Virus record (IMG/VR): IMGVR_UViG_3300037493_005727
Location: 69,091-133,090 of that record
Length of the DNA stretch: 64,000 nucleotides
Source: a virus
Strand: one strand, 5' to 3'
The translations under genes and the position numbers were made by a program. Every line of letters begins with the position of its first letter. Within the stretch, counting starts at the first letter, position 1. This document shows positions 19,092-58,198 of the stretch, piece by piece. The notes beneath the pieces are model-generated. The model was not told the origin of the DNA, made no database searches, and was given only the letters and a program-made list of their open reading frames with translations.

Positions 19092-19100
19092 CCTATACTT
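19092..19100 (+). promoter_or_regulatory. CTATACT box (-10-like), 9 nt upstream of ATG 19109
   Basis: gCCTATACTTgaggcgcaATG. One of five copies of this motif; see the finding on it. Confidence 0.45.
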
Positions 19101-19108
19101 GAGGCGCA

Positions 19109-19513
19109 ATGGCCGCCAGTATCACCCACACGCAGACTCGTACGGACACGGTGCCTCCGGTACCGGACGTGTACCCGAGCATCCCTAACACCCTGGATGC
19201 CAAGTACCGCGTCGTCGACGTTGTAACGGCCACGGTCAACATCGACCCTGAAGTCTTCGTGTACCGCTACAGCGACTGGGTGTTCGATCACGTAGCTACC
19301 GTGCTGGACATGGAGCAGATCCAAGAACTTACGCCAACTCCCGGCGCACCGTTTTACCGCCAGAACTACGTGGTGAGGGACTTCGCGAGTGAGAGCCAGG
19401 CCGCCGCCTTCGCAGAGGAACTGATCTCTCGAATGGAACGTCTGGCGTTGGAATACGTGTTGTACCCGTCGACGTTCGTTGGTACGACGACCGGTACGCT
19501 CCCTCCCCCGTAG
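19109..19513 (+). CDS. hypothetical protein, tandem paralog A
   Basis: 134 aa. VFVYRYSDWVFDHVATVLDM...PFYRQNYVV...LISRMERLALEY aligns with the next gene (LFTYRFSDGLYDHVSTTVDL...PFYRQSTVS...VESRLTSLAKEY). Confidence 0.6.
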   Translation: MAASITHTQTRTDTVPPVPDVYPSIPNTLDAKYRVVDVVTATVNIDPEVFVYRYSDWVFDHVATVLDMEQIQELTPTPGAPFYRQNYVVRDFASESQAAAFAEELISRMERLALEYVLYPSTFVGTTTGTLPPP

Positions 19514-19515
19514 CG

Positions 19516-19524
19516 CTCTATACT
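19516..19524 (+). promoter_or_regulatory. CTATACT box (-10-like), 8 nt upstream of ATG 19533
   Basis: gCTCTATACTgaggaactATG. Confidence 0.45.
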
Positions 19525-19532
19525 GAGGAACT

Positions 19533-19898
19533 ATGGCAGCCACGGTCATCAACTACACGCTGGTTCAGAGCACCATCCCGGGTCCCCCGGCGCAGTATCA
19601 GGTGCAGGCGACGATCAACACATCGCCAAACACCGGCACGTCGCTGTTCACGTACCGCTTCAGTGACGGCCTGTACGATCACGTGTCTACTACCGTGGAC
19701 CTGATGACGTACCCGACCGCGGCCAATCCTTCCTTCCCGTTCTACCGGCAGTCGACGGTGTCCTTTTTGTCCCAGAACGCAACCGAGGCCATCGACTTCT
19801 CCGCGATGGTCGAGTCTCGCTTGACGAGCCTGGCGAAAGAGTACGACGCAGTCGCGACGACCTTCGTGCCTGGTACGTACCCCATCGTTGTTCCGTAA
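19533..19898 (+). CDS. hypothetical protein, tandem paralog B
   Basis: 121 aa, homologous to 19109..19513 as described there. Confidence 0.6.
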   Translation: MAATVINYTLVQSTIPGPPAQYQVQATINTSPNTGTSLFTYRFSDGLYDHVSTTVDLMTYPTAANPSFPFYRQSTVSFLSQNATEAIDFSAMVESRLTSLAKEYDAVATTFVPGTYPIVVP

Positions 19899-19907
19899 GG
19901 ACGCACC

Positions 19908-21062: not shown

Positions 21063-21234
21063 CCGGGGCGGTGAGGAAGAAAGCGCACATCCTGAGGAAG
21101 TCTATCTTGTCGACAGCGACTTCTCGCTGATCGATGATGATGAACATCCATTTGTCTTCAGTCCCCTCGGCGAACTCGATGTCCTTGGGGTAGCTGTTGG
21201 AGCTGTCCTTCTGAAGCGTGAGTACGAGCTTCAT
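21022..21234 (-). CDS. small hypothetical protein
   Basis: 70 aa. ATGA overlap with the upstream gene at 21231-21234. Its tail overlaps the 3' end of 19908..21062 convergently. Confidence 0.35.
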   Translation of the reverse strand: MKLVLTLQKDSSNSYPKDIEFAEGTEDKWMFIIIDQREVAVDKIDFLRMCAFFLTAPATGQCVQTQGTGP

Positions 21235-22523
21235 GGGCGTACCTCCACTTTGTCCACATCTCCGAGGCGTCCATCAGACAGATGAGAGGCGACTTGGGAG
21301 ATCTTGGTAAGATCCGAGGTGTAGCGAGAAATCCAATTACCGTTCGTCCAAAGAACCGAAACGTAGCGGTCGTTACACCCCACAGCTGTGATGTATCTCC
21401 GATTCCCCCAACCGGTGGCCTGATAGCCGCGGCCAGTCTTGAGCGTGAGCCACAGCAGCGCTCGCAGCGTTGGATCTTTGACGGGCCCACGCTTCGCAGG
21501 CACGTCTGCTTCAATCAGCGCCAACCCAAAGGCCTTGGCGATGTCCTCGTACGTCTTGAGCATCCCGAACTCAGTGATTGACCCCTTGGCTCGGTGCACC
21601 GTCGCAACGACGCCGTCAGTGCCCTGTAGCTTGAGGCCTGTGAGCACAACGTTCCAGCGAGAGACCTTCGCGGTCTCCCCCATGTGCCGGGCAATCTCCC
21701 ATAGCTGCCACTCAGGCCAGGGGGATGCTTTCATCACCGCGGTGAGCCGACGGTCGGCTTCCTCGATGATGCTCGCTTCAGGCGGGTAGGCGCCCTTGCA
21801 GTGCGACGCCCTGTCGCAGCTGTCCTTGATGGGACATTTGACGCACTGCGTCTTCTTGAACCTCTTGGTGTCGGCTCCTTGAGTGGACGCCTCGGAGCGC
21901 TTCTTGTGGTTCTTCTCTGTTGCGTCGAAGTCGTGCTCCCAGTACGGGCGGATCGCCTTCGAGAATGCTTCTGTCCGTGTCGAACCAGGCTTCACGAGGG
22001 TGAACTCCCCCAGCTTGGTGTAGTGCTCCTGCACGTGCTCCCACAGGTCCTCAGCCTCGTGCGCTGGGGACAGCCTCGCTGGGAGCTCAATCCCGACTCC
22101 CTCAGACAAGCACTTCATCCCCTTGTCTGGGCAGTGCGTGCACCCCACCGCCTTGAACAAGGACAGGCACCGGTTGTAGCGCTGTCGCAGGTTCAGAGTG
22201 TATGGCTTCCCTTCGAGAAAGAATTGAAGATCCGGCGTATCGATCTTCGCGTCGTCCGGCAATTGCTCCGCAAGGTGCGTGGAGACGAGGACGAACTCCA
22301 TCTTCGGGGGCGTAGGCTTTTGGTTTCCCCACCAGCTGCTGTTGCGAGGCTGGGCGCCTGCGACCTGCGATACGAAGTACCCGTTTGAAAAGATCTTAGC
22401 GAGCTCCGGCAGGGCAGCTACCTTTTCGACGTCCAACGTCTCGAAGAGAAGAGAAGGGGTCGTAGAATCCTCCCGCCACCGGGATGAGTTGTTATCTGTG
22501 GCGGAACAGACGGTGTATCTCAT
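21231..22523 (-). CDS. hypothetical Cys-rich protein immediately downstream of the RT
   Basis: 430 aa with CTHCPDKGMKC and CVKCPIKDSCDRASHC clusters. ATGA overlap with the RT gene. Confidence 0.55.
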   Translation of the reverse strand: MRYTVCSATDNNSSRWREDSTTPSLLFETLDVEKVAALPELAKIFSNGYFVSQVAGAQPRNSSWWGNQKPTPPKMEFVLVSTHLAEQLPDDAKIDTPDLQFFLEGKPYTLNLRQRYNRCLSLFKAVGCTHCPDKGMKCLSEGVGIELPARLSPAHEAEDLWEHVQEHYTKLGEFTLVKPGSTRTEAFSKAIRPYWEHDFDATEKNHKKRSEASTQGADTKRFKKTQCVKCPIKDSCDRASHCKGAYPPEASIIEEADRRLTAVMKASPWPEWQLWEIARHMGETAKVSRWNVVLTGLKLQGTDGVVATVHRAKGSITEFGMLKTYEDIAKAFGLALIEADVPAKRGPVKDPTLRALLWLTLKTGRGYQATGWGNRRYITAVGCNDRYVSVLWTNGNWISRYTSDLTKISQVASHLSDGRLGDVDKVEVRP

Positions 22524-23716
22524 GTACCTGTCACCTCGAACGGTGGACTCTGGTTCTCGAGATCGACGGGTTCACTCTTCAGCTCCCCGTTTACGAACTC
22601 GAAGGAGGTGACGTCCTCCTGCTTGTGTGTCTCCTTCGCTTTCACGTAGAGCTTGAGCAGCTTCGCTGTCTTGTCCGGCGCGAACCGGGTGAAGTAGTTG
22701 AGCTTGCCTACGATCCACGCATGAAGCTGAGGTACAGACTCCTTCTTCGCGTACTTGAGCTGTGCCTCGAAGCCGTGCTGGTTCGCCTTGTAGAGGAGCA
22801 TGTGCATCTTGTTGTACTCGTTCGCTGGGATGTTCAGCTTACGATTGATGCTGATCCCCAAGAATCGTTGAGGACGCGACCAGTGCTGGACCTGCAGCTT
22901 CTTCCAGTTTACTCGGTAACCTGTGCTCTTGATGACGCGGTCAGCGGCTTGGATCACCTGAGAAACGTCGGGTGAGTTCAGCGGCTTGTCGTAGCTGAAG
23001 TACAGGTCGTCCGCGTACCTGGTGTAGCGCCACCCATCTGGTAGCGTCTTCATCAGCGGCTGGTCAATCTTCCAGTCGCACACCAGGTTGCAGATGTCCC
23101 CTGCCGTGAGCGCTCCCGGCGGAACACCGGTACGTGTCTTGTTCCGGTCGTCCCGGTAGTCGGTCGTGAGCAGCTGGCCCAAGAGCGACGAAGCGTAGTG
23201 GTTGTATCCAACGACCTCGTGGAAGTACTGGCGGATCCATGAACGGCGTGTCGACAAGAAGAAGTCCTTCAGGTCGAGCTTGAACTTGACCCCGCGTCGA
23301 GGGCAATCGTGCTTCACCGGGCTGGTGTGAGGCTTGGTCGTCTCGTCGCAGATCTTGCACTCGCGCAGGTGCAGTGACGCAGCGTCGATTGTGCTTTTAC
23401 CGAGCTGATAGGCCGCCACGTGCTGTCCCAGGTGTGTTGTCAGGGGCTGGAGGATGCGGCTCCGCATCTGCGCCTGGAAGATGCGCAGTAGGTCGTTGGG
23501 GTCGAAGGTTCGGCGCAGTCCGCCGGTCTTCTTCTTGACCATGAACTGCTTGTACATCTGGTCTCTGTGATCGACGATGTACCAGAACGTCTTTCCAGTG
23601 AACCCCAGCCGAAAGGCCAGAGTCCAGTCGTCGATGATGAACGGCACGTTGGGGAGATTTACGAGAGGAGCACGGACCTCGATCTTCTCGAGGAAGTTTT
23701 GTTTGTAGGTGGGCAT
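22520..23716 (-). CDS. reverse transcriptase (stand-alone prokaryotic RT, class unresolved; DGR-like motif 4)
   Basis: KKKTGGLRRTFDPNDLLRIFQAQMRSRIL (RT1-2), AAYQLGKSTIDAASLH (RT3), FKLDLKDFFLSTRR (motif A), GVPPGALTAGDICNLVCD (motif B', P-x-G-x-L-T-x4-N-L as in DGR RTs), RYADDLYFS (YADD catalytic box), FLGISI (motif D/E). Confidence 0.85.
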   Translation of the reverse strand: MPTYKQNFLEKIEVRAPLVNLPNVPFIIDDWTLAFRLGFTGKTFWYIVDHRDQMYKQFMVKKKTGGLRRTFDPNDLLRIFQAQMRSRILQPLTTHLGQHVAAYQLGKSTIDAASLHLRECKICDETTKPHTSPVKHDCPRRGVKFKLDLKDFFLSTRRSWIRQYFHEVVGYNHYASSLLGQLLTTDYRDDRNKTRTGVPPGALTAGDICNLVCDWKIDQPLMKTLPDGWRYTRYADDLYFSYDKPLNSPDVSQVIQAADRVIKSTGYRVNWKKLQVQHWSRPQRFLGISINRKLNIPANEYNKMHMLLYKANQHGFEAQLKYAKKESVPQLHAWIVGKLNYFTRFAPDKTAKLLKLYVKAKETHKQEDVTSFEFVNGELKSEPVDLENQSPPFEVTGT

Positions 23717-24345: not shown

Positions 24346-24378
24346 GAGGACTCCTTGGTGGTGGTGGTTGTTTGGTGA

Positions 24379-24903: not shown

Positions 24904-24906
24904 GGC

Positions 24907-27035: not shown

Positions 27036-27044
27036 CCTATACTT
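27036..27044 (+). promoter_or_regulatory. CTATACT box upstream of gene 27076
   Basis: tCCTATACTTcag, 31 nt before the ATG. That gene also has a GAGGTGG ribosome-binding site. Confidence 0.4.
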
Positions 27045-27075
27045 CAGTGGTTCAATCCTCTTTCGAGGTGGCACA

Positions 27076-32698: not shown

Positions 32699-32742
32699 AA
32701 TGTCTCCACTACGGAGACGCCGGGTAGGTACCGGAGCAAGAG
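32699..32742. repeat. 42-bp hairpin-containing direct repeat, copy 1
   Basis: AATGTCTCCaCTACGGAGACGCCGGGTAGGTACCGGAGCAAGA contains a GTCTCC(g)...CGGAGAC stem-loop and a CCGG-GTAGGTA-CCGG element. An AGCTAGGCT box sits ~30 nt upstream. Confidence 0.6.
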
Positions 32743-32899: not shown

Positions 32900-32941
32900 A
32901 TGTCTCCGCTACGGAGACGCCGGATAGGTACCGGGGCAGGA
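32900..32941. repeat. 42-bp hairpin-containing direct repeat, copy 2
   Basis: ATGTCTCCGCTACGGAGACGCCGGaTAGGTACCGGgGCAgGA. An AGCTGGGCT box sits upstream. Confidence 0.6.
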
Positions 32942-33090: not shown

Positions 33091-33134
33091 AATGTCTCCG
33101 CTACGGAGACGCCGGGTAGGTACCGGAGCAAGAT
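33091..33134. repeat. 42-bp hairpin-containing direct repeat, copy 3
   Basis: AATGTCTCCGCTACGGAGACGCCGGGTAGGTACCGGAGCAAGA. AGCTAGGCT upstream. Ends 12 bp before the exonuclease gene stop. Confidence 0.6.
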
Positions 33135-37711: not shown

Positions 37712-38764
37712 TTAGACGTCCTTCGAGTAGTCCGGCGCTGTATCAGTGTCGCCCTTGACGAACGCCTTCTCGTCGAATGCCGGGGTGGACCCAGCACCAG
37801 CTGCACCACCGGCTTCCGTGCTGTTCTTCAGACGGTCGTGGATGTTGGCCAGCGCCGCGTAGTAGATGTCCGTGTCGATGATCTTGGACAGCGCGGTGAA
37901 CAGCGGGTGCAGCTTCGGGTCGGTGTTCGCCTTGGTCGCGTCAGCTACCGGGTTCGTCTGGATGACGTACCACTTCTTGTCGCCCTCGACGCGCTCCTTC
38001 GCCTCGAAGGTGAACCAGCGGTCCCAGAGGCTGTTGGACTTCTTCATGATGCCCATCAGCGCACGGCCAGCGCCTTCGCTGGTCTTGCTGAACTTCAGCT
38101 CGTAGATGGACGTCATCTCCTGGTCGAGCAGGTACGCGGTGACTTCCCGCATGCAGCCGCCCTGGCTGTACTGGCGGACGCTGGGGTTGAGCGGGCAGGC
38201 GTCGCAGTTGCCGTACTTGCTCCCGGTCTTTCGGTCGACCGACACGCAGATCGGCGCCTTGCTTTCCTTGCTGTCGTTGGACTTCGGCGGCCAGAGGATC
38301 TGGCCTTCGTAGATGGCCAGGGGGACGGCGGTGAACTTCTCCCCGAGGATGCGGGAATCCGCCGAGTAGAACTGGCCAGGCAGGCACTGGCGCGGGCGGA
38401 GCGGGTCATTGCCGGTGCCGTGGTACGGCTTCAGGGCGGTCGGCTCGAACCCGGTGGACGAAGTGTGCAACCCCTGCTTCTCGGGGTTGGTCTTCGACAC
38501 CAGCGTCATCATCGCTTCTTGTCCCGCCTCCGGGAGCTTCATCACGATGTCCATGAGCTCGGAGGGGGTGGGGCGCTTGAGCATCAGCGCTCGGGCGCGA
38601 ACTTCCTCGGGGAGACGCGCTGCCAGGGCCTTGCGGGCGGCGAAATCCGAGGAGATACTCGCATCTGCCGCCGGAACGATAGCAGCGGGTGCAGGAGCGG
38701 CAGCGGTTTCGATGGGCGCGGCGGGTGCTTCCACTGCGGGGGTGGTATCAGGCTTCTTGGCCAT
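37712..38764 (-). CDS. hypothetical protein (candidate ssDNA-binding/annealing partner of the adjacent nuclease)
   Basis: 350 aa with an Ala/Pro-rich N-terminus and a GNCDACP motif. Function inferred only from its position next to the Cas4-like exonuclease. Confidence 0.45.
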   Translation of the reverse strand: MAKKPDTTPAVEAPAAPIETAAAPAPAAIVPAADASISSDFAARKALAARLPEEVRARALMLKRPTPSELMDIVMKLPEAGQEAMMTLVSKTNPEKQGLHTSSTGFEPTALKPYHGTGNDPLRPRQCLPGQFYSADSRILGEKFTAVPLAIYEGQILWPPKSNDSKESKAPICVSVDRKTGSKYGNCDACPLNPSVRQYSQGGCMREVTAYLLDQEMTSIYELKFSKTSEGAGRALMGIMKKSNSLWDRWFTFEAKERVEGDKKWYVIQTNPVADATKANTDPKLHPLFTALSKIIDTDIYYAALANIHDRLKNSTEAGGAAGAGSTPAFDEKAFVKGDTDTAPDYSKDV

Positions 38765-38885: not shown

Positions 38886-39719
38886 ATGAGCGCTATGGAA
38901 AACGACCGCGTTGTCTCAGCGTATTTCGCCGATTTACGCGGTAACTCGTTTGTTCCTCAGAAGGAAGAGTACGACCTTGTTAAGGCGTACAGGACCTGCT
39001 CCTCCTGCCGAGCGTCTTACGCTCTTGGAGCGTCTACCTCCAAGTGCGCCAAGTGCGGGACTCCGCGAAACTTCAAGGCGCGAGATCGCCTGATCTCTGG
39101 CGCCCTGAGATTCGTTGTGAAGCTCGCCAAGGAATACTCCTTTCGAACGAAAGGTCCCAATTTCGATAACGAAGTTCTCACCGCTTTGATCTCCGCGGGG
39201 AATGTAGGGCTACTGGTCGCAGCTGACCGCTTTGACGTGACACGCAATACGAAGTTCTTGACGTACGCGGCTTGGTGGGTTCGAGAGAAGATCCTCGAGG
39301 AGTTGGACAGCCAGGGCATTATTCGCGTGCCCGCCCACAAGCAGAAGGCTCTCCGCGCCCAGCGAAAACACGGCGGAGGTACTGAAGTTGAAGCGCCCCA
39401 CGTCACACTAGATGACGTCGAGGCGATCGATGACGCTGGTCATTGTGAGCAGCGTCTTGAGAAAGATCTCGTCAATACCTACGGCCTTGCGCTGCTCCGC
39501 GCAGCCCTGGATGAGCTCTCGCTTCGTGAGCGAGACAAGTACATCGTCCTGGCGTACTACGGTTCCCGAGAGGAGCCGAAGAATCTTCGACAGATCTCCA
39601 AACGCGTAGACCTCTCCTCGGAACGCGTGCGCCAGATCAAGAAGGACACGATGGACCAGCTCCGCACGTACCTGGCGGCCAATCAAGTATCGGCCACCAG
39701 GGACGTGTTCGCGGAGTAG
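38886..39719 (+). CDS. RNA polymerase sigma factor, sigma-70 family (regions 2-4 only)
   Basis: LISAGNVGLLVAADRFDVTRNTKFLTYAAWWVREKI (region 2.1-2.4). LSLRERDKYIVLAYYG...NLRQISKRVDLSSERVRQIKKDTMDQLR (region 4 HTH). Confidence 0.8.
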   Translation: MSAMENDRVVSAYFADLRGNSFVPQKEEYDLVKAYRTCSSCRASYALGASTSKCAKCGTPRNFKARDRLISGALRFVVKLAKEYSFRTKGPNFDNEVLTALISAGNVGLLVAADRFDVTRNTKFLTYAAWWVREKILEELDSQGIIRVPAHKQKALRAQRKHGGGTEVEAPHVTLDDVEAIDDAGHCEQRLEKDLVNTYGLALLRAALDELSLRERDKYIVLAYYGSREEPKNLRQISKRVDLSSERVRQIKKDTMDQLRTYLAANQVSATRDVFAE

Positions 39720-44967: not shown

Positions 44968-44980
44968 CTTTACGTGGTAC
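44968..44980 (+). promoter_or_regulatory. CTTTACGTGGTAC box upstream of portal-like gene
   Basis: acATACTCTTTACGTGGTACggtcacc, 35 nt before ATG 45015. Identical 13-mer at 58201-58213. Confidence 0.4.
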
Positions 44981-47361: not shown

Positions 47362-48093
47362 TTAGGTGGCTGGTGCCTCTGACGCTTTCGTCAGCGCCTC
47401 AAAGGGTGGTAGCGACGGCACTTCCTTGCCGCCCCTCTTAGGTGTCTTGATCTTGTTGATCTTCGCGGCAGGGCCCGTCTTGGGAGACGCGATCTGGGGC
47501 ACCTGCTTCTGCGCCTGCTGCTGCGCCTTCCACCGAGTAACGTCTTTCTGGTGGCAGGCGTAGCACTTGCGGCGTCGGACATGCTTCTTGTACTTCTTGA
47601 GTCCCGACGCGACTTCCCGGACCGTCACGACGATCGCCTTGTCGCTTCCGCAGGGCTGGCAGAAGTACTGATACACTTCCGCAGACCCGGACAGCGTTCC
47701 GGCGTCGAACTGATCGACGATGGTCTTACGCCCCTCTGGCGTGTCCCAGCGCTCGATGTAGTCGAATGCCATTCGTCGCAGAGGAACGAGGCACTCGCAC
47801 AACGGGTACTCCGGGTGGAAGCCCAGCACCTTATCCGCAGGCACGGGGTCCTTCTTCGTACCGCAGAAGAAGCACTTCGTTCCGGCGCACCGGATCGCGG
47901 CTTCTTCGGCGTAAGCGGGAAGCCGAGACATCGGCAGCCCTGTCTTCGCCCACCTCCGCGGCTCATCCACCGCGCAGATGATTGCCTCCTTCAATTCCGG
48001 AACGGACGGTCCCGGCTTGAAGGATTCCTTCAAGACCACTTTCGTGGTCTTCTTCTTCTTCGTCACGGCCTTCTTCTTCACGGCCTTCTGCAT
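47362..48093 (-). CDS. lysine-rich zinc-finger DNA-binding-like protein
   Basis: 243 aa, poly-Lys at both ends, CFFCG...CEC...CQPCG...CYACH Cys pairs. A lone minus-strand gene between plus-strand blocks, just upstream of the RNAP gene. Confidence 0.5.
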   Translation of the reverse strand: MQKAVKKKAVTKKKKTTKVVLKESFKPGPSVPELKEAIICAVDEPRRWAKTGLPMSRLPAYAEEAAIRCAGTKCFFCGTKKDPVPADKVLGFHPEYPLCECLVPLRRMAFDYIERWDTPEGRKTIVDQFDAGTLSGSAEVYQYFCQPCGSDKAIVVTVREVASGLKKYKKHVRRRKCYACHQKDVTRWKAQQQAQKQVPQIASPKTGPAAKINKIKTPKRGGKEVPSLPPFEALTKASEAPAT

Positions 48094-48185
48094 GGTATAC
48101 CCCTCGATGGTAATGGTTGCCCGAGGTGCGACCCCGGGTGTAATGAGTCCCTAGATTGCGACTCAACTACTGATACCAAATAAGG

Positions 48186-48194
48186 GGCTATACT
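48186..48194 (+). promoter_or_regulatory. CTATACT box 7 nt upstream of RNAP gene ATG (leaderless-type promoter)
   Basis: aaggGGCTATACTtacggacATG. Confidence 0.45.
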
Positions 48195-48201: not shown

Positions 48202-51200
48202 ATGGCGCTGACATCCGTGCTCACCGATGCCGAGTCCCGGCGGACTCAAATCCGAGCGAAAGCGCTTGAGGCGCTCCGCGCCGCCTTTCCCTTGCCCCTT
48301 AGGGACAAGCAGATCCAAGTCTCTGATCTGCAGGTCCACCACAAAGACTACGGGCCGAACGACCAGAAGCAGGCGCTGCTCAGCGGCGGATCCCTCTTCG
48401 AGCCCGTCAAGGGGACCATCACTCTTCGAGGCGCTGACGGCAAAGAGATCGAGAAGGTAAAAGGTTTTACCTTGCTCAACCTCCCGTTCTTCACTGGGCG
48501 GCACACCTTCATCTTGGACGGCAACGAGTACAACGTCTCAAACCAGCTCCGTCTGAAGCCGGGCGTGTACACTCGACGGCGAGGAAACGAAGAGCTCGAA
48601 GCGGCCTTCAACCTTTCGAAGGGGGCTAACTTTCGGTTGTCCCTGGACCCCGCCCAAGGGCACCCGTACGTCGAGTACGGAACTACCGCCATTCCGCTTT
48701 ACTCAGTATTGCGGAAGTTGGGAGTCCCGCACGCAGACATCTCGTCGCACTGGGGATCCGATGTAGCGGGGCAGAACGAGGCTGCGTTCGCAGGGAAGCA
48801 CGACAAGCACCTCGCCAAGCTCTACGAGAAAGTGACGCATCCGTCCAAGCGCACGGCCACCAACCCTGAGACGCAACTAGAGGCAGTGCGCGCCGCTTAC
48901 GCTGCGACCGCGATGGACCCTGAGGTCAACAAGGAGACTCTGGGGCACGAGTTCTCGTCGGTCACCCCTCAGGCGCTGCTGGTTGCGTCGAAGCGCCTCC
49001 TCAACGTCTACAAGAACAACGCCCCTGTAGATGATCGTGACGCTCTGCAATTCAAGACCTATCACTCGGTCGACGACTTCATCAAAGAGCGCATCACTCT
49101 CGACGCCCGAGCCCTGGCCAGCAAGGTGAAAGGGCGGGCGACGCACAAGACCGGGCTCCGAGAAATCCTCCCGTCGTCGCCTTTCTCTGGTGGCATCCGG
49201 AGCTTCCTCACCGGCTCACAGCTGAGCTCGATTCCGACGCACATCAACCCGATGGAGGCCATTGATCACGCCGTTAGGGTTACTTCTCTGGGTGAAGGCG
49301 GCATTGCCAACGAACGGGCAATCCCCGCAGAAGCCCGAACCATCCACTCAAGCCATCTCGGTATCCTGGACCCGATTCGTACCTCAGAGTCGTTCCGTGC
49401 AGGCATCGACATCCGTACGGCATTCGGGGCTCATCGGGATGAGCGAGGGAATCTGTACACGATGGTAAAGGATGTGAAAACAGGTAAGGGGGTCATGCTC
49501 TCGGCGTCTGAGATGTCTAGCGCCGTGGTGGCATTCCCGAAGCAGAAGATGTCTGGGATGATCGCCGCGATGGACAAGGGAGAAGTCGCTCACGTCCCTG
49601 CGTCCAAGGTGACCCACGAACTCTACGACGCTGCTCAGCTCTACTCTCCCGCGACGAACCTCGTACCCTTCCTCGAGTCTGTTCAGGGGAACCGTGGAAT
49701 CATGGGCGGCAAGGTTCAGACGCAGGCTCTACCGCTCGTTCACAGAGAAGCTCCCCTCGTACAGTCGGGGGTCTCTTCATCGGACAAGAACGGACAAAGC
49801 ATCAGCTGGGAGCGGCAGCTCGCTCACCTCGCGCTCCCCGTTTCTCCCGTTGCAGGGAAGGTAGTGAAGATCGACGGGCAGTACATCTACATCGACCCGT
49901 CTGGGAAGAAGCACGCTGAGGACTTCGGGATCGAGAAGAACTCGTTCGAGAAGCGCGGCGGGGCAGTCAAACGACAGAAGACCATCAAAGGACTTTGCTT
50001 CAAGCTTGAGCTCGAGCCTGGAGACATCCGCTCTGGCGTATCCCCCGAAGGTAAGAAGTGGGAGAAGAAGATGTCCCTCGCCTACGGGCACATTCCCAAG
50101 ACGGTTGGGGATGACGGCGAGACCGTAGACATCTACTTGAAGGAAGATGGCGTCTTCGATCACGTGTACGTTGTTCGTCAGAAGAAGCGCGACGGATCAC
50201 ACGATGAAGATAAGTGCATGGTGGGGTTCGACTCGAAGGACGCCGCGAAAGACGCCTACGAGAAGCACGGACCGGAATGGGGTTACGGGTCGTTGGAAGA
50301 GTATACCTGGGATGAGTTCCAGGACGACTACCTTTCAGAGCGGCAGCGCGAGAAGGCCGCTGCTGAGAAGGATCTCGTACGCGTTCCGTATGACAGCAAC
50401 TTGCCTTTCGCGTCCAAGACCTATCTACACCACGATCTCTTAGTGAAGCCGGGGGACCACGTCACCGCTGACCAGCATCTCGCTGAGTCCAACTTCACGC
50501 GGGACGGCGCCTTTGCTCTGGGCCGCAACATGACCATCGGGTACATCCCTTACTACGGGATGAACTCGAACGACGCTGTCGTCATTTCGGAGGGCGCTGC
50601 GGACAAGCTCACGTCTGAGCACATGTACAAGGAGATCGTTGAAGTCGAGAGGGACGCAATCGTGGGGCGCGACGTCCACCAGCAGTACTACGGGCCCAAG
50701 TACACCGCGGAACAGTACCGCAAGCTCGACGCCAACGGCGTAGTACGCAAGGGCATGAAGGTGATGCCTCACGACATCCTGATCGCCGGAGTTACCAAAG
50801 GAAAACTTTCCGCGTCAGACGCCCTGCTAGGCAACCTGAAGAAGACTCTGGTTCACCCCTATCGCGAGCTCGTTCGCACCTGGGATCACGACTACGAGGG
50901 GGACGTCATCGACGTGCACGTCACAGACAAGCGCGTCGTGGTGACCGTTAGGACGAAAGAGCCGATGCGCGTCGGCGACAAGCTCACGGGACGGCACGGA
51001 AACAAGGGCGTTGTTTCCATGATCGTACCGGACCACAAGATGCTTCAGGATGAGAAGGGTAAGCCGCTCGAGGTGCTCTACACCTCAGCAGGCGTCATCT
51101 CGCGTATCAACCCGGCGCAGATTCTTGAAACGGTGGTAGCCAAGGTCGCCAAGAAGATTGGGAAGCCCATCATCGTTGAGAACTTCTCGGGGAGGGACAA

Positions 51201-53016
51201 CGTGCAGTGGGCGAAGGACTTGCTCAAAGAGCACGGGGTCAAGGACAAGGAAACGCTTTTCGACCCTGTCTCTGGGAAGAAGATCCCCGGCATTCTGGTT
51301 GGGCCGCAGTTCGTGCTCCGCTTGTTCAAAACCACGGAGACTAACTTCGCAGCCCGCGGCACGGGGGCCTACGACGTCAACCAGCAGCCCATCAAAGGCG
51401 GAGACGAGGGCGCAAAGGCCGTCGGCAAGATGGAGTTCAATGCACTGGTTGCGCACAACGCCCGTAACGTGCTGCGAGAGACAGCGACGATCAAGAGTCA
51501 GAAGAACGACGAGTTCTGGCGCTGCGTCCAGTTGGGGCTACCGCTCCCTCCGCTGAAGTCTTCGTTCGCCTACGACAAGTTCGTGGGAATGCTCCACGGG
51601 GCAGGAGTGAAAGTGGACACCCGGGGGAGTGTGAGCACTCTGTCTCCTTTGACGGACCACGACATCCTGAAGATGTCCTCCGGCGCGATTCAGAACGAGA
51701 AGCTGGTTCGGGCCAAGGATCTCGCCCCTGAGCGCGGAGGCTTGTTCGACCCGGCGGTGACGGGCGGGACCGTCGGTACCCGCTGGAGCCACATCGAGCT
51801 CGCCGAGCCCATCATCAACCCCATCTTCGCTGACCCCGCTCGCCGTTTGCTCGGGATGACGTTGAAGGAGTTCGACAAGTTTCACCACGACAATGGTGGG
51901 GCGCAGATCAAGAAAAAGCTAAACGCCATCAACGTGAGTGGGCGTATCGACGAGCTGCGGAGCTCCATCAAGAAGTTGAACGGGGTGAAGCTCGACGACG
52001 CAGTGAAGCAGCTCAAGTTCCTAGAGGCTCTGCACCGGCAGAAGCTCCAGCCTGGGGACGCCTACGTGCTGTCCAAGCTCCCAGTTCTGCCTCCGCTCAT
52101 GCGTCCGATCCTCCCAGGAAAGAGCGGGTCTGAGCTCGTCGTAGGGGATTCGAACTACCTCTACCAGAGCGCCATGCTCCACAACCGCTCACTCCAGCGG
52201 CAGGTCGACTCTCCTGTTCTCCCCCCCGATGAGCACGCCAAGCTGCGGCAGAATCTCTTCAACGCAGTGGGCGCCGTCGTCGGAACGCACGAGTCCGACA
52301 ACCCCAAGCTCTTGAAGCGCAACGTGAAGGGTCTGCTCGAGCACCTCACGGGGAAGACGACTCCGAAGAGCAGCTACTTCCAGAAGAAGATCATGAAGCG
52401 GCAGCAGGACATCTCCGGGCGCGGAACCATCGCTCCTGACGGGTCCTTGGGCATGGACGAGATCGGTCTCCCAGAAGACATGCTCTGGGGGATGTACGGG
52501 AAGTTCGTAATCGCTCGTTTGGTTCGTCGAGGCTTTGGCGCCGTCGCTGCGAAGGAGATGGTGGAGAAGAAGCACCCCGCGGCGCACGACGCGCTGATGG
52601 CCGAGCTCAAAGAACGCCCCGTGATGGTGAACCGCGCCCCCACACTGCATCGGTACGGCTTTGTTGGCGCCAACCCTGTGCCCGTGGCGGGTAAGACGAT
52701 CCGGGTGAACCCCTTCATCGAGCTCGGAATGAACGCCGACTATGACGGCGACACCTTCCAGATTCACGTCCCAGTTCTTCCTGGGGCCGTGCAAGAGGTG
52801 AAGGGGATGACTCTCTCCAATCTTCTCTTCTCTGACCGAGAGAAGGATAGCTTGATGGTCGCTCCCCGCATGGAGGCTATGCTAGGAGTTCACCTGGCTT
52901 CCAAAGCAGAAGGATCTGCCAACGGGCAGACTCACAAGTACAAAACGAAGGCGGACGCCATGGCAGCATACAAACGTGGTGAGATCACGCTCAGCTCGAA
53001 GGTAGAGGTAGGCTAA
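48202..53016 (+). CDS. fused multisubunit RNA polymerase beta subunit + N-terminal half of beta' subunit
   Basis: 1604 aa. Beta: ...SLGEGGIANERAIPAEARTIHSSHLGILDPIRTSESFRAGIDIRTA, LVPFLESVQGNRGIMGGKVQTQALPLV, MRVGDKLTGRHGNKGVVSMI, GKMEFNALVAHNARNVLRETATIKSQKND. Beta'-N: HIELAEPIINPIF, MVNRAPTLHRYGF, NADYDGDTFQIHVPV (the catalytic Mg triad). The usual N-terminal beta' zinc-finger cysteines are absent. Confidence 0.9.
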   Translation: MALTSVLTDAESRRTQIRAKALEALRAAFPLPLRDKQIQVSDLQVHHKDYGPNDQKQALLSGGSLFEPVKGTITLRGADGKEIEKVKGFTLLNLPFFTGRHTFILDGNEYNVSNQLRLKPGVYTRRRGNEELEAAFNLSKGANFRLSLDPAQGHPYVEYGTTAIPLYSVLRKLGVPHADISSHWGSDVAGQNEAAFAGKHDKHLAKLYEKVTHPSKRTATNPETQLEAVRAAYAATAMDPEVNKETLGHEFSSVTPQALLVASKRLLNVYKNNAPVDDRDALQFKTYHSVDDFIKERITLDARALASKVKGRATHKTGLREILPSSPFSGGIRSFLTGSQLSSIPTHINPMEAIDHAVRVTSLGEGGIANERAIPAEARTIHSSHLGILDPIRTSESFRAGIDIRTAFGAHRDERGNLYTMVKDVKTGKGVMLSASEMSSAVVAFPKQKMSGMIAAMDKGEVAHVPASKVTHELYDAAQLYSPATNLVPFLESVQGNRGIMGGKVQTQALPLVHREAPLVQSGVSSSDKNGQSISWERQLAHLALPVSPVAGKVVKIDGQYIYIDPSGKKHAEDFGIEKNSFEKRGGAVKRQKTIKGLCFKLELEPGDIRSGVSPEGKKWEKKMSLAYGHIPKTVGDDGETVDIYLKEDGVFDHVYVVRQKKRDGSHDEDKCMVGFDSKDAAKDAYEKHGPEWGYGSLEEYTWDEFQDDYLSERQREKAAAEKDLVRVPYDSNLPFASKTYLHHDLLVKPGDHVTADQHLAESNFTRDGAFALGRNMTIGYIPYYGMNSNDAVVISEGAADKLTSEHMYKEIVEVERDAIVGRDVHQQYYGPKYTAEQYRKLDANGVVRKGMKVMPHDILIAGVTKGKLSASDALLGNLKKTLVHPYRELVRTWDHDYEGDVIDVHVTDKRVVVTVRTKEPMRVGDKLTGRHGNKGVVSMIVPDHKMLQDEKGKPLEVLYTSAGVISRINPAQILETVVAKVAKKIGKPIIVENFSGRDNVQWAKDLLKEHGVKDKETLFDPVSGKKIPGILVGPQFVLRLFKTTETNFAARGTGAYDVNQQPIKGGDEGAKAVGKMEFNALVAHNARNVLRETATIKSQKNDEFWRCVQLGLPLPPLKSSFAYDKFVGMLHGAGVKVDTRGSVSTLSPLTDHDILKMSSGAIQNEKLVRAKDLAPERGGLFDPAVTGGTVGTRWSHIELAEPIINPIFADPARRLLGMTLKEFDKFHHDNGGAQIKKKLNAINVSGRIDELRSSIKKLNGVKLDDAVKQLKFLEALHRQKLQPGDAYVLSKLPVLPPLMRPILPGKSGSELVVGDSNYLYQSAMLHNRSLQRQVDSPVLPPDEHAKLRQNLFNAVGAVVGTHESDNPKLLKRNVKGLLEHLTGKTTPKSSYFQKKIMKRQQDISGRGTIAPDGSLGMDEIGLPEDMLWGMYGKFVIARLVRRGFGAVAAKEMVEKKHPAAHDALMAELKERPVMVNRAPTLHRYGFVGANPVPVAGKTIRVNPFIELGMNADYDGDTFQIHVPVLPGAVQEVKGMTLSNLLFSDREKDSLMVAPRMEAMLGVHLASKAEGSANGQTHKYKTKADAMAAYKRGEITLSSKVEVG

Positions 53017-53636
53017 TGGCTCGTTACAAGATCGCTGCAGGCGCTGGGTTCGATGCCGCGTACGCTGAAGCGGAACAGGCGCAGGCCCCCGAGGCTCAGC
53101 CCGCTGGGGAGGTGGAATCTGCGGTTCAGCCCCCGCAGCCCACTGCCTCTGAGGGGGTTCACCCGCTGGCCGTGTCCCCGGAGGAAGGGTTGTTCGCAGT
53201 TCCTCAGGAGAAGGTCGTCGGCCAGTGCGTGAAGCTGCTCAAGCTCAAGTACACGATGATGATGATGTACATCAACTACGGTGACCGGATCCGGGCGCAT
53301 TTCCGGGACGTCATCTACGACCACTTCAAAGAGCACGCCGACGAAGAGCGTCAGGACGCCTACCACCTGACGATGAAGATCACGGCGTTGGGCGGGGAGC
53401 CCACTCCGAAGGTGAGCACCATCCCCGACATCAACGACCTGCACCAGATGTTCATGGCTCTTCTTCAGGCGGAGAAGCAGATCATCCAGGAGCTGCGGAA
53501 CCTGTCCCTCATGGCGGGGGAGAATTTGTCACTCAAGGTCATGCTCGAGCAGATGGTCTTCACGGATCAGCAGCACGCGGACGATTTGCGTCGGATGATG
53601 TTCTGCGAAGGAGGCGGCGGTGGAACCGTTCCTTAA
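53016..53636 (+). CDS. ferritin-like four-helix-bundle protein
   Basis: FKEHADEERQDAYHL and MLEQMVFTDQQHADDL give paired E...E-x-x-H-like motifs on predicted helices. Start overlaps the RNAP stop (TAATG). Confidence 0.45.
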   Translation: MARYKIAAGAGFDAAYAEAEQAQAPEAQPAGEVESAVQPPQPTASEGVHPLAVSPEEGLFAVPQEKVVGQCVKLLKLKYTMMMMYINYGDRIRAHFRDVIYDHFKEHADEERQDAYHLTMKITALGGEPTPKVSTIPDINDLHQMFMALLQAEKQIIQELRNLSLMAGENLSLKVMLEQMVFTDQQHADDLRRMMFCEGGGGGTVP

Positions 53637-53778: not shown

Positions 53779-53791
53779 CCTAGGCTCTGCC

Positions 53792-54483: not shown

Positions 54484-54489
54484 GGTCTT

Positions 54490-56289
54490 ATGGCGCAAAC
54501 TCTCGGCAAGTACCTTGTAAACGATCTCCTTCCCACCAAGCATCACATCACGGGGACGTTGAACAAGAAGGAGTTCCAGCAGAAGATGCTGGCACTCGCG
54601 CAGGAAGACCCCGCCGGGTACGTCGAGATCGTTTCCAAGCTGAAGTCTCTGGGTGACGACATCTCTACGCTGGAGGGCATCTCAGTAGGGTTGGACGACA
54701 TCACCCCGGCGTACAAATCCCGCGATGCCATCATGGCGCCGGGAATCGCCGCGATGAAGAACGCTGTCGGGCGTGACGCCAAAGAGAAGATCATTCTCGA
54801 CGTACAAAAGAGAATGCTCGAGCACACCAAGGTACACCCGGGGTCAATGACGGCGATGGCGCTCTCTGGGGCGCGTGGAAACATTCCCCAGCTGATGAAG
54901 ACCATCGCATCCCCAGTTGCTACGACTACGGGGAAGGGGGACATCAACCCCTGGCTCATCAGTCGGTCGTACGCCGAGGGCCTCTCCGCGGCTGACCACT
55001 GGGCCGCAGGAAACGAAGCTCGACACAACACCGTCCAGACGTACACCGCCATCGCGGAGCCTGGCGACATGTCGAAGGTCATGACCAACAATATGTACCC
55101 GATGGTCATCACCAAGGACGACTGCGGCACGCACAACGGTTTGGCGATGGACAGTCACGACGGAAACATCGTCGACCGGTACCTTTCACGGGATCAGGCC
55201 GGATACCACCGGAACGACGTCGTGACGAAAGCCGTCGCCTCCAAACTCCAGGCCAAGGTGAAGAAGGTCTACGTCCGCTCACCCATGACTTGCGACGCCA
55301 CCGACGGGATCTGCCGCAAGTGCCAGGGGCTTGATGAGCGGGGGCGCCCTCACGCGATCGGCGTCAACGTTGGCGTTCGAGCTGCTCAATCTATCTCCGA
55401 GCCTCTGACCCAAATGGCTCTCGGGGCCAAGCACGGAATGCGCGTCTTGAAGGGCGCGTCGCCCAAACTGGAAGGCATCGCTGGCATCCGTCAGCTCCTG
55501 GAAGTTCCTCAGAGCTTCATCAACAAGGCGCCTCTAGCTGAACACGCGGGTACGGTGACTAAGATCGTTCCTGCGTCCCATGGCGGAACGCACGTCTACG
55601 TGGACGCGGTGCAGCACTACGCTGGTCCTAACTTGAAAATCCTGGTAACCCCGGGACAGAAAGTCGAGGCAGGCGATGTCCTCTCAGAAGGGATCCCGAA
55701 GCCAGATGAGCTCATTCACCACAAGGGTTTTGGTGCGGGACGACAGTACCTCGTGGACACACTTCATGACATCTATTCCGGTCAAGGAATCAACGTCGAC
55801 AAGCGGCACCTTGAGCTGGTCGCCCGCGCAGACCTCAACCACGTCAAAATTCTCGAGCATTCGGATGAGCACCCTGAGCTCGTAAAGGGGGAGACGCTCC
55901 CCTATTCCACGTACCGTGATGCGGCGCGGAGTCGCAACAAGCTGCTCCCCTTGGCCCAAGCGGAAGGCGCTGTACTCGGTAAAGAGGTTCTTCACTTCAC
56001 CGTAGGTACTCGACTGTCTTCCTCCGTCATCAACACCCTTCGGGCACACGACATCAAGGAAGTTGAAGCGACGTCAACGCTCCCGAGAGTTGAGTTTCTG
56101 ATGCGCCCGATGGCGCGAAATCCTCTCCTGCATCCGGACTGGATGGCGCGACTGGCGCACCGGTACCTGAAAGACAGCCTGCTGCAGGGAGCCCGAACGG
56201 GCGCGGCATCAGACCGCCACAGCACGCACCCAGTACCCGCCTATGCTTACGGCGCTGAATTCGGGATCGGACCTGAGGGGCACTACTGA
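54490..56289 (+). CDS. RNA polymerase beta' subunit, C-terminal half
   Basis: ALSGARGNIPQLMKTI...YAEGLSAADHWAAGNEARHN...VITKDDCGTHNGL aligns with E. coli beta' GARG...FREGL...HGARKG...TEDDCGT (bridge-helix/F-loop region). The downstream trigger-loop-like G-rich segment is also present. Confidence 0.85.
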   Translation: MAQTLGKYLVNDLLPTKHHITGTLNKKEFQQKMLALAQEDPAGYVEIVSKLKSLGDDISTLEGISVGLDDITPAYKSRDAIMAPGIAAMKNAVGRDAKEKIILDVQKRMLEHTKVHPGSMTAMALSGARGNIPQLMKTIASPVATTTGKGDINPWLISRSYAEGLSAADHWAAGNEARHNTVQTYTAIAEPGDMSKVMTNNMYPMVITKDDCGTHNGLAMDSHDGNIVDRYLSRDQAGYHRNDVVTKAVASKLQAKVKKVYVRSPMTCDATDGICRKCQGLDERGRPHAIGVNVGVRAAQSISEPLTQMALGAKHGMRVLKGASPKLEGIAGIRQLLEVPQSFINKAPLAEHAGTVTKIVPASHGGTHVYVDAVQHYAGPNLKILVTPGQKVEAGDVLSEGIPKPDELIHHKGFGAGRQYLVDTLHDIYSGQGINVDKRHLELVARADLNHVKILEHSDEHPELVKGETLPYSTYRDAARSRNKLLPLAQAEGAVLGKEVLHFTVGTRLSSSVINTLRAHDIKEVEATSTLPRVEFLMRPMARNPLLHPDWMARLAHRYLKDSLLQGARTGAASDRHSTHPVPAYAYGAEFGIGPEGHY

Positions 56290-56291
56290 CC

Positions 56292-56756
56292 ATGCGCGAT
56301 CTGAGCCACAGGGCGGGCGTTACCGCGGCGCTGCGAGATTTCGCGGTGGCCAAGTACGCCGGATTCTGGGGCGATGTCGCGTCGTCCGCCCGTCACCAAG
56401 CGTTCGGGCAGCCTGGTGAAGCGCTAAAACAGATTCGCGCCGGGACTCTGTTCAACCCTGAGACGGGGCTGTATCACCACGGGCTTCCCAGATCGCTTGG
56501 AGGTCTAGCAGGCAATCTCGCTGTGCCTCTGGCGCTGACCGCGTTGTTCGCAAAGATGCATCCTGAGGGAAGCCGGGGAGAACTCATCGGCGATATGATT
56601 GGTAGGACGACGGGATCTTTGCTAGGAGCTCCTTTGTTTGGAGCTGTAGGTCAAGTAGGTGGCGGTATGTTGCTTTCGAATGTCGGTCGTGCCCTCGGGC
56701 GCCAATATGACTTGGCGTCAGCACCGCGTAATTCAGAGGTTGCGTCTGAAGAGTGA
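56292..56756 (+). CDS. Gly-rich hypothetical protein
   Basis: 154-aa ORF directly after the beta'-C stop. Confidence 0.4.
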   Translation: MRDLSHRAGVTAALRDFAVAKYAGFWGDVASSARHQAFGQPGEALKQIRAGTLFNPETGLYHHGLPRSLGGLAGNLAVPLALTALFAKMHPEGSRGELIGDMIGRTTGSLLGAPLFGAVGQVGGGMLLSNVGRALGRQYDLASAPRNSEVASEE

Positions 56757-56855
56757 TTTTTCCTATGTTGGCTGTACCGGCGCTGAACGCCCGCAAATTG
56801 TAAAACCACAACCTCTGGCCTACACTCCGGCCATCGTACGAAGGAGCAAAATTTC

Positions 56856-58130
56856 ATGGGTCTCTTTAAGCGTGCAGCAGCCCGAGGCGTAGCACACGAA
56901 CTTGTTCGTCGCGGAGTCATCGCGTTCCCGTCGAAGCAGGCGATGGACGAGGCGGCTGACGCCGTCGCTGACGGTCCTCCTGGCGAGGCCATGCCGGAGA
57001 TGTCCCCCGAGGGCGGTCACTCCCCCGAGGAGCTCGCCACCGTTGCCAACAAGCTGATGGAGATCGCCCACGCTCTGATGGAGCAGGCGGGTGCTTCGGC
57101 TCCTGGCGCTGGCGGGATGCCTCCTGGGATGGAGCATGAAGGCGCCGCTCCTGAAGGCCCTCCCCCGTCACCCGAGGCCGCCAAGGCAGCCATGGATCTG
57201 ACCAAGACCGCCGCGGAGGCGAACTACGAATCGCTGGCAGCGTCTATCGCGGTCGAGTGCATGGAGAAGGCCGCGGCCGAGGTGAAGCAGGCCACTGGTG
57301 GCGCGCTGATTCACGGCGGCGACAAGGGCAATGACGCGGCGCAGGCTGCGACGCACGGCGAAGTGGCCGCACTCGACAAGAAGCAGCGCCCCGAGGGTGC
57401 CTACCACCACGGCGTGGGCAACACCGAGCTGGACACGATGAAGGGCCACATCGGTGACCTGAGCAAGAATCCGAAGGGTCCTGCGAACAGCCCGTCGGGC
57501 AGCAACTCTGTGAGCAGCGACGCAGGCTCAGGCAAAGCTGCAAGCCTGGACGAGCAGCTCAAGAAGATCGCCAACAAGCTGGTTGGCCTGCACGACGGTG
57601 AGGACAAGAACAAGCTCACCGACGCGGCGAAGATCGACACCCTCGCGCAGCTGGACAACAAGAACCGCCCCCAGGGGAAGTACCTGGTCGGCATGGGCAA
57701 CGCGAACTTCTCCGAGCCGCAGACTCATCGCATCGGCCATGAGCAGCCGCACCCCAACGCGCCGAAGAACAGCCCTTCGGGCACCAACTCGGTGATTCAG
57801 GCCTCGAAGACCTCTGAGGAGGACGCGTTCCTGGTGCTCTTCAAGAAGACCGCCGAGGACGTTGGCCCGTACCTCCCCGCGATGAGCGACGACGAGAAGG
57901 TCGCGCACATCTCCAAGATGATCGGCTTCGACCACGACGGACGCCAGGAGTACCTGAACGGTCTCCACAAGACCGCGGGTGGCGATGAGTCGAAGGAGAC
58001 GAAGGCGCACGAGAAGAGCGAGTCGCCCAAATACGAGAAGAAGGAAGAGAAGGGCGAGTCCAAGAAGGAGAGCGCGCTCCTCGGCAAGATCCGTGAAATC
58101 GCCGCCGCGTCTTCAGCCTCGGCGAGCTAA
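56856..58130 (+). CDS. acidic Ala-rich repeat protein (scaffolding-like)
   Basis: 424 aa. Internal repeat KKQRPEGAYHHGVGNTELDTMKGHIGDLSKNPKGPANSPSGSNSV / NKNRPQGKYLVGMGNANFSEPQTHRIGHEQPHPNAPKNSPSGTNSV. GAAGGAG RBS. Its position before a large structural gene suggests a scaffold. Confidence 0.45.
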   Translation: MGLFKRAAARGVAHELVRRGVIAFPSKQAMDEAADAVADGPPGEAMPEMSPEGGHSPEELATVANKLMEIAHALMEQAGASAPGAGGMPPGMEHEGAAPEGPPPSPEAAKAAMDLTKTAAEANYESLAASIAVECMEKAAAEVKQATGGALIHGGDKGNDAAQAATHGEVAALDKKQRPEGAYHHGVGNTELDTMKGHIGDLSKNPKGPANSPSGSNSVSSDAGSGKAASLDEQLKKIANKLVGLHDGEDKNKLTDAAKIDTLAQLDNKNRPQGKYLVGMGNANFSEPQTHRIGHEQPHPNAPKNSPSGTNSVIQASKTSEEDAFLVLFKKTAEDVGPYLPAMSDDEKVAHISKMIGFDHDGRQEYLNGLHKTAGGDESKETKAHEKSESPKYEKKEEKGESKKESALLGKIREIAAASSASAS

Positions 58131-58157
58131 AGCCGCAGCTCCCAACAAGAGGGCCCA

Positions 58158-58198
58158 AAACGGCCGTTGGGTCCTATACTTGGACCTGACGGCCGTTT
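58158..58198 (+). terminator. long stem-loop with TATACTT loop (terminator-like; also carries a CTATACT box)
   Basis: AAACGGCCGTtgGGTCC-TATACTT-GGACCtgACGGCCGTTT gives a 10+5 bp stem with a 2-nt internal loop, immediately followed by CGCTTTACGTGGTAC. It lies 28 nt after the scaffold-like gene stop. Confidence 0.45.

Follow-up and report, generated by a model that had tools for sequence, protein, structure and literature searches.

Which promoters serve a phage that encodes both a multisubunit RNA polymerase and a sigma factor? We addressed this question in a stretch of 64,000 nucleotides (nt), hereafter called the window, that covers positions 69,091 to 133,090 of the IMG/VR virus record IMGVR_UViG_3300037493_005727. 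The window is part of an uncultivated phage genome of ~190 kb with 59% GC. An RNA polymerase, with both halves of its beta' subunit, and a sigma-70-family factor are all encoded within it. The beta subunit is fused to the N-terminal half of beta' in a protein of 1604 amino acids (48202-53016, plus strand; Pfam and NCBIfam), and an inorganic-pyrophosphatase-like (InPase) domain is inserted at residues 589-708 of this fusion. The C-terminal half of beta' (599 amino acids; 54490-56289, plus strand) was recognized by a profile match. The sigma-70-family factor (277 amino acids; 38886-39719, plus strand) contains regions 2 and 4, as identified by Pfam/NCBIfam and alignment. The initial annotation of this DNA drew attention to a CTATACT box that recurs upstream of plus-strand start codons and proposed that it marks promoters of leaderless mRNAs. 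Our analysis gives good support to the view that C-TATACT(-T) is a conserved -10-type promoter element without a -35 partner. We further propose, with moderate confidence, that this element is read by the phage sigma factor together with the phage beta-beta' polymerase, and that it yields a leaderless mRNA at the polymerase gene.

The box is strongly enriched and is placed where a promoter would be expected. CTATACT occurs six times in the window (19093, 19518, 27037, 48188, 58174 and 62921), always on the plus strand, against an expectation of 0.98, although the copies at 19093 and 19518 precede tandem paralogues, represent one duplicated unit and are not independent. None of 100 shuffled sequences reached six copies. 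The shorter word TATACT was found in 8 copies against 2.99 expected. Intergenic DNA makes up 7.9% of the window by our own gene calls, and it holds five of the six CTATACT copies (binomial P = 1.7e-5). All five are co-oriented with the downstream plus-strand gene; the exception is the copy at 62921, which lies inside an open reading frame (ORF). An unbiased k-mer count placed TATACTT (5/5) and CTATACTT (4/4) among the top intergenic-specific words. The end of the box is separated from the ATG by 9 nt at gene 19109, 8 nt at gene 19533, 7 nt at gene 48202, 32 nt at gene 27076 and 56 nt at gene 58237. The recurrence reported in the initial annotation is thus real, as is its observation that the box ends 7-9 nt before the start codons at 19109, 19533 and 48202. 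Its five sites all exist, with coordinates 1-2 nt off, but it overlooked the sixth copy inside a gene. Its consensus C(C/T)TATACT does not fit the sites at 19518 (tCTATACT) and 48188 (gCTATACT), and the core common to all sites is C followed by TATACT.

We computed the information content of the motif over 12 non-orthologous sites. Information is confined to positions -13 to -7, which read C-TA(T/C)ACT. The C at -13 is present in 12/12 of these sites, as it must be given how they were selected, and in 0/6 of the non-candidate TAYACT copies in coding sequence. The T-12, A-11, T-7 pattern of a -10 element appears as TATACT at all six sites and as TACACT at two variants. At position -14 the base is C in seven sites, G in three and T in two; T occupies -6 in 6/12, and no preference for AA follows it. 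No position upstream of -13 is conserved across the 12 sites. A paired -35 hexamer at 16-18 bp is absent at the boxes, save for TTGGCG at 16 bp before the copy at 62921, and sigma-70-type -35/-10 pairs are not enriched in the window (0, 3 and 3 found against ~4 expected per 20 kb). TATAAT does not occur on either strand of the window. These results agree with the initial annotation, which had seen no convincing -35 partner, and the lack of a conserved -35 assigns the box to a -10-only or extended -10 subclass of promoters. We considered ACTACTGATACCAAA (48166-48180) as a -35-like partner of the polymerase box and rejected it, because relatives differ in its distance to the box, which ranges from 9 to 33 bp.

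The box at the polymerase gene is conserved far beyond its surroundings. It occupies 48188-48194 on the plus strand and ends 7 nt before the ATG of the beta-beta' gene. We took orthologous polymerase upstream regions from IMG/VR, Logan, NCBI and JGI contigs; loci from these and other sources are referred to by L numbers where they must be told apart. CTATACTT is present in 16/17 aligned polymerase upstream regions, in which overall column identity is only 46%. We then restricted the comparison to the clade with at least 60% RNA polymerase identity, which comprises 19 distinct upstream sequences when the window is counted and duplicates are collapsed. Thirteen of the 19 read CTATACT-N7-ATG, three read CTATACT-N12-ATG and one reads CTATACT-N6-ATG. 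Of the remaining two, one (L028) has CTAAGTT-N7-ATG and the other (L029/L030) has no box. The spacers of the N7 set differ from one another (tacggac, tatggct, tgccact, tctgagc, tccaggc, tggcggc and tcccagc). L028 is informative about the spacing: a decayed old box, CTGACTTACGGAC, lies 25 nt further upstream (~2450-2510 of that locus), so that a 25-nt insertion displaced it and the new C-TAAGTT restored the distance of seven nucleotides.

The start codon in these comparisons is fixed by the conserved N-terminus of the polymerase, M-x-L-T-P-V-L-T-D. In the public annotation of L015, the polymerase gene begins too far upstream, and the box can serve as an aid to start-codon annotation in such cases. 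In a clade of ~50% identity, the same place is taken by gTATAAT-N9-ATG (in a group that includes L033-L035), cCATAAT-N8-ATG or TATATAAT-N5-ATG, and a few members have a leader with an ordinary Shine-Dalgarno (SD) sequence. We read the box as a promoter element because it is conserved while its flanks diverge, because it is oriented with the genes, and because it carries the T-12/A-11/T-7 pattern.

We examined whether these promoters are likely to produce leaderless mRNAs. A TANNNT box ~12 nt before the start codon is an accepted signature of bacterial leaderless genes (PMC3160421). The polymerase gene displays this signature: the distance from the first T of its box to the ATG is 13 nt, and no SD is present. 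SD sequences are absent throughout the N7 polymerase set, and every member has C or T immediately before the ATG. Bacterial start-site choice prefers a pyrimidine at -1 and a purine at +1, and the invariable pyrimidine before the ATG fits this preference. The polymerase mRNA is therefore likely to be leaderless or nearly so, with its predicted start at the ATG, and this is the best-supported leaderless promoter of the set. The layout is gene-specific. An SD core precedes 49 of the 79 called genes of the window, and the boxes at 27037, 56820, 58174 and 62921 lie 29-56 nt upstream of SD-led starts. Of the initial proposal of leaderless mRNAs, the part concerning the polymerase gene stands, the 19109/19533 pair is ambiguous, and the other sites do not conform; the box is best read as a general promoter element. 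The accompanying guess that the host belongs to Deinococcus-Thermus or Actinobacteria finds no support, given the frequency of SD sequences and the hosts of the only isolated relatives, Salmonella and Vibrio. Among isolates, Salmonella phage Arash and Vibrio phages D69, D148 and D181 come nearest to the window phage.

The second group of closely spaced boxes belongs to a family of small paralogous genes. One box (19093-19099, plus strand) lies between divergent genes and ends 9 nt short of the ATG of gene 19109-19513 (plus strand), the first gene after it. This gene codes for a protein of 134 amino acids that has no Pfam or PHROG match. The other box (19518-19524, plus strand), the duplicate of the 19093 unit, occupies part of a gap of 19 nt between the two genes, with 8 nt separating it from the ATG of the 121-amino-acid paralogue (19533-19898, plus strand). 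CTATACT-N9-ATG is kept in L066, L067/L011 and L068, with the spacers ggggccact, tgggccact and gggagcacc. A spacing of eight or nine nucleotides thus recurs in five copies from four genomes. In the N9 copies, position 7 after the box is always a purine preceded by C.

At the remaining sites, the box stands further from the start codon. The box at 27037-27043 (plus strand) lies 32 nt before the ATG of gene 27076, in front of a predicted leader with an SD, and CTCCTATACTTC at this site is conserved in two relatives (L009 and L010). Within the leader we read from the sequence a hairpin, CCTCtttcGAGG (27057-27068, plus strand), that encloses the SD and pairs it with an anti-SD-like CCTC; it is kept in the same two relatives. 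A CTACACT variant (56820-56826, plus strand) lies 29 nt before the SD-led ATG of gene 56856. A CTACACT variant on the minus strand (12694-12700) is found upstream of the VapE-like helicase gene, and L011 has cTATACTT in the equivalent primase-helicase gap. The copy at 62921-62927 (plus strand) lies inside the ORF 62602-63762 and encodes A-P-I-L; the reading frame is uninterrupted in all six genomes. At this place 4/5 relatives retain the rare codons CCT and ATA, the latter accounting for 2.4% of Ile codons, in surroundings whose synonymous sites have diverged. A conserved ATG in the same frame (62974) follows the box by 46 nt and is preceded by an SD-like purine run, and the public gene call starts there. 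This copy is possibly an internal promoter for a shorter product.

The copy at 58174-58180 lies in the loop of a hairpin (58158-58198, plus strand) that follows the gene 56856-58130. This hairpin, which the initial annotation had pointed out, is real, with a 17-bp stem, the loop UAUACUU, a folding energy of -36 kcal/mol and z = -5.7. It is likely a terminator or stabiliser. Hairpin-loop promoters of the N4 type were considered for the boxes in general and rejected, since a real hairpin exists at this copy only and the other flanking repeats measure 2-4 bp. Additional boxes are found beyond the right end of the window. Locus L017 is identical to the window across a 12,165-nt overlap and continues past it, and it carries plus-strand boxes at 15501-15507 (CTACACT) and 18007-18013 (CTATACT), equivalent to window positions 67336 and 69842. 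Each falls within the 3' end of a small gene, and the next gene of the structural module follows at 165 nt for the first box and 108 nt for the second.

The closest known system is the sigma-S-type extended -10 promoter. The extended -10 consensus of E. coli sigma-S is TCTATACTTAA; selectivity depends mainly on its C(-13), which K173 of helix 3.0 contacts (PMC3367168). CTATACTT is identical to the core of this consensus. We aligned the phage sigma factor with RpoS, whose sequence we verified against PDB entries, and with SigA and SigB; the alignment extends over regions 1.2 to 3.0. His151 and Lys154 of the phage sigma align with H170 and K173 of sigma-S; sigma-70/SigA have Glu in place of K173. 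All 120 retrieved sigma homologues, 46-100% identical to the window protein, carry the lysine, and the TYAAWW melting motif is conserved in the family. The phage sigma also has region 4 (Pfam PF04545) and a Cys-rich N-terminal insert. The Arash orthologue, gp196, has Gln at the K173 position, and Arash is without CTATACT enrichment. This pairing hints at covariation between the lysine and the box, weak but consistent. Arash was considered as a phage that might share the box and was rejected, as its five CTATACT copies in 94 kb show no gene-upstream pattern and it has another recurrent motif.

Based on these observations, we propose that a C at -13 and the hexamer from -12 to -7 define one promoter class of the phage. 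The phage sigma encoded at 38886-39719 would contact the box with its region 2 and helix 3.0, Lys154 would read C(-13) in the role of sigma-S K173, and the core enzyme would be the beta-beta' polymerase of the phage itself. The predicted transcription starts lie 7-8 nt past the hexamer: on the A of the ATG at the polymerase gene, which would produce a leaderless mRNA; ~3 nt before the ATG in the 19109/19533 family; and, at the other sites, at positions that would give ordinary leaders of 20-50 nt with an SD. The polymerase fusion is 37% identical to Arash gp206 and is syntenic with it. Polymerase beta, beta' and a sigma factor (Gp10) are abundant proteins of Arash virions (PMC10585845). The absence of TATAAT, the lack of enrichment of -35/-10 pairs and the presence of the polymerase in the Arash virion together favour phage-autonomous transcription but do not prove it. 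The phage-sigma-dependent promoter class that the initial annotation had suggested is plausible.

Several observations weigh against this reading or against parts of it. The phage sigma scores 95.6 bits with the RpoS model TIGR02394, for which the cut-off is 378.7, and the RpoD, SigB and RpoH models score similarly; it is not an RpoS orthologue. Where sigma-70 has Q437 and T440, the phage sigma has E and L, and the T(-14) and TAA tail (-6 to -4) of the sigma-S consensus are not conserved at the boxes. Relatives carry a second sigma factor (Gp10 in Arash), and a second one may be encoded outside the window, so the sigma of the window is put forward as a candidate reader. The stem of the hairpin at 58158-58198 is conserved in all relatives, and its loop TATACT is kept in L004, L005 and L006 but lost in L007 and L008; this copy, in a terminator-like loop, may be non-functional. 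The relaxed motif CTAYACT occurs in 8 copies against 4.5 expected, a number that is not over-represented.

Other such points concern the spacing and the leaders. The N12 spacing in three polymerase orthologues and the N6 spacing in one indicate that a short leader is tolerated at the polymerase gene. In the window, a GAGG precedes the ATG of genes 19109 and 19533 by 4 nt, the distance most often seen between SD and start codon in the phage (13/49 SD-bearing genes). A transcript started 7 nt after the box would not contain this SD. L066 and L067 have no SD core before the ATG of the 19109 orthologues, and the G-rich run before the 19109 and 19533 start codons could be a chance occurrence, a secondary SD or a discriminator element. 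A leaderless mRNA with a predicted leader of ~3 nt is plausible for this family but ambiguous.

The box might instead be a promoter for a host sigma factor, either as a housekeeping extended -10 element or through host RpoS on the host core enzyme, and the polymerase would then be an early gene. TATACT matches TATAAT at 5/6 positions, and the match of CTATACTT to the sigma-S consensus core in E. coli is exact. In more distant relatives, a plain TATAAT stands before the polymerase gene. The polymerase gene also needs a transcriber made earlier, unless the enzyme comes with the virion; the Arash polymerase and sigma are found in the virion, so that the host enzyme would not be needed. The heptamer is identical at every site and in diverged relatives, which fits a dedicated factor better than a housekeeping sigma that tolerates variation, and the window has neither -35 elements nor TATAAT. 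The lysine predicted to read C(-13) is also invariant among the phage sigma homologues. We regard transcription by a host sigma as unlikely, though worth keeping in view, and if a host sigma does read the box, the finding is an ordinary one.

We also weighed the idea that the box is not a promoter at all, and instead acts just before start codons as an A/U-rich translation enhancer, an RNA element or the operator of a DNA-binding regulator. An A/T-rich box stands out in a genome of 59% GC, and at the polymerase gene it lies directly before a start codon that lacks an SD. It is also found 29-56 nt upstream of SD-bearing starts and hence is not tied to the ribosome site. Inverted repeats flank some copies (GGTCC/GGACC at 58174, CGCC/GGCG at 19093 and CTC/GAG at 19518), but these are short and inconsistent. 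The boxes have the exact T-12, A-11, T-7 pattern of a -10 element, and in distant relatives a canonical TATAAT takes their place at the same distance to the ATG. We find a role other than that of a promoter improbable. That the boxes arose by chance or from base composition, with their number inflated by tandem duplication and by coding constraint at 62921, is very unlikely. The duplicated unit at 19093 and 19518, the conserved A-P-I-L at 62921 and the ordinary number of CTAYACT copies would all be compatible with chance, but the shuffled sequences never reached six copies, the copies are intergenic and gene-oriented, and the box is kept at orthologous positions in many relatives whose flanks have diverged.

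We compared the proposed phage promoter with known systems. It shares the core C-TATACT-T with E. coli sigma-S promoters, in which the -35 is likewise weak or absent, and in its candidate reader His and Lys correspond in position to H170 and K173. It differs in that the putative reader is a phage-encoded sigma that is not RpoS, in the lack of conservation of T(-14) and the TAA tail, and in the core enzyme, which is probably the fused beta-beta' of the phage itself. The leaderless promoters of Actinobacteria and Deinococcus-Thermus resemble the polymerase site in having a -10 box at a fixed short distance from an ATG without an SD (PMC3160421). In the phage, the arrangement is limited to one or two gene families, and an SD precedes the majority of genes. 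The phage box has its first T 13-15 nt, not 12, before the ATG and contains far more information than TANNNT. The cI mRNA made from the PRM promoter of phage lambda is another leaderless case for comparison.

Phage T4 offers a precedent for a phage promoter class defined by a short, near-invariant motif in the -10 region without a -35. The T4 late promoter, TATAAATA, is a -10-only element read by gp55, a factor without region 4 that depends on gp33 and the sliding clamp. The sigma in the window has region 4, and co-activators were not searched for. Thermus phage P23-45 has extended -10 middle and late promoters (PMC7403470). These also consist of a -10-region motif without a -35, but P23-45 uses the host sigma-A holoenzyme. 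The polymerases of jumbo phages of the phiKZ/AR9 type have split subunits and no sigma factor (PMC7824862). They share with the enzyme described here a phage-encoded origin and a beta/beta' type, and the related enzyme of Arash is present in the virion. Here, unlike in phiKZ/AR9, beta and the N-terminal half of beta' are fused and a sigma gene is present; the promoters of the phiKZ/AR9 type are unrelated to the box.

Sigma-encoding phages are thought to borrow the core enzyme of the host (PMC7824862). The lineage described here carries both a bacterial-type beta-beta' and a sigma-70-family factor, which sets it apart from the sigma-less phiKZ/AR9 types. We tentatively suggest that these distant kin of Arash have self-contained, sigma-dependent transcription based on the fused beta-beta', with at least two promoter classes, namely TGGTAnnAG, a match to the Arash GGTATAAG, before early-type operons and C-TATACT-T recognized through the K173-type lysine of an RpoS-like sigma, and with a polymerase mRNA that is obligatorily leaderless; this larger picture is possible, but we would not yet call it probable. 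If true, it would be the first phage multisubunit polymerase that uses sigma and has a defined promoter code. The box and its candidate reader offer a testable promoter motif, a residue-base pairing between K154 and C(-13), and a deeply conserved leaderless arrangement at the polymerase gene. Our literature search found no paper on promoters of this lineage. The moraphages described in the literature are an unrelated lineage without polymerase genes.

The TGGTAnnAG(T) motif is found back to back with CTATACT in both divergent control regions, where it faces the leftward genes. At the polymerase gene, the ACTACTGATACCAAA block adjoining the box is conserved, and its minus-strand reading TTGGTATCAGT (48170-48178), an instance of TGGTAnnAG, points at the divergent gene 47362-48093. 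TGGTACAAG (19074-19082, minus strand) lies 10 bp from the box at 19093 and points at the leftward operon. TGGTATCAG (38743-38751, plus strand) is located 135 nt upstream of the sigma gene, and a further TGGTAnnAG(T) copy occurs at 34439-34447 (minus strand). In Arash (L012 and L013), we found ~20 copies of GGTATAAG-N6-GTAAACA followed by an SD before leftward small genes. TGGTAnnAG(T)/GGTATAAG probably represents a second, family-wide promoter class. We also observed an exact 12-mer, CTTTACGTGGTA, at 44968-44979 and 58201-58212, upstream of the portal-like gene 45015 and the gp218-like gene 58237. Its copy after the hairpin at 58158-58198 is invariant in five relatives, and the adjacent TATACT loop is not. 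CTTTACGTGGTA reads TGG followed by TAYAYT and is a possible extended -10 element.

The other genes of the window include those for a terminase, DNA polymerase A, ribonucleotide reductase, primase, a VapE-like helicase and a reverse transcriptase. A sigma factor 100% identical to that of the window is encoded on a 190,250-bp metagenomic contig, and the close relatives are IMG/VR contigs of 167-189 kb. A blastn search of the region against phage genomes gave no match. Homology to Arash names only the portal (45015), a structural protein (58237, gp218-like), the sigma and the polymerase. PHROGs and Pfam searches with the genes downstream of the boxes returned nothing useful, and no temporal class could be assigned to these genes. 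An Rfam search of the window returned no family, and a search for tRNA genes in it found none.

Some features of the polymerase genes and their neighbours were noted in passing. A ferritin-like gene (53016-53636) directly follows the polymerase fusion gene. Vibrio phages D148 and D181 have a homing endonuclease within the polymerase gene, and the DNA polymerase of L015 (267-4436) contains Hint and LAGLIDADG (intein) domains. The polymerase ORF of L003 is broken soon after its start (L003/L023 ~3082-3156) and contains 12 stops, pointing to a frameshift, an insert or an assembly error. The reverse transcriptase gene (RVT_1; 22520-23716, minus strand) lies inside a leftward operon and may be part of a diversity-generating retroelement or of a defence element. 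Three near-identical 39-nt repeats (32700-32738, 32900-32938 and 33092-33130) are spaced ~200 nt apart in a gene-free region of 767 nt; each contains two short hairpins, GTCTCCnCTACGGAGAC and CCGGnTAGGTACCGG, and has no Rfam match. Finally, the segment 10207-10683 is gene-free and locally richer in A/T, and it holds seven copies of an iteron-like repeat (CTGAAYAC and its complement GKRTTCAG together) beside the VapE-like helicase and primase genes, which makes it a candidate replication origin.

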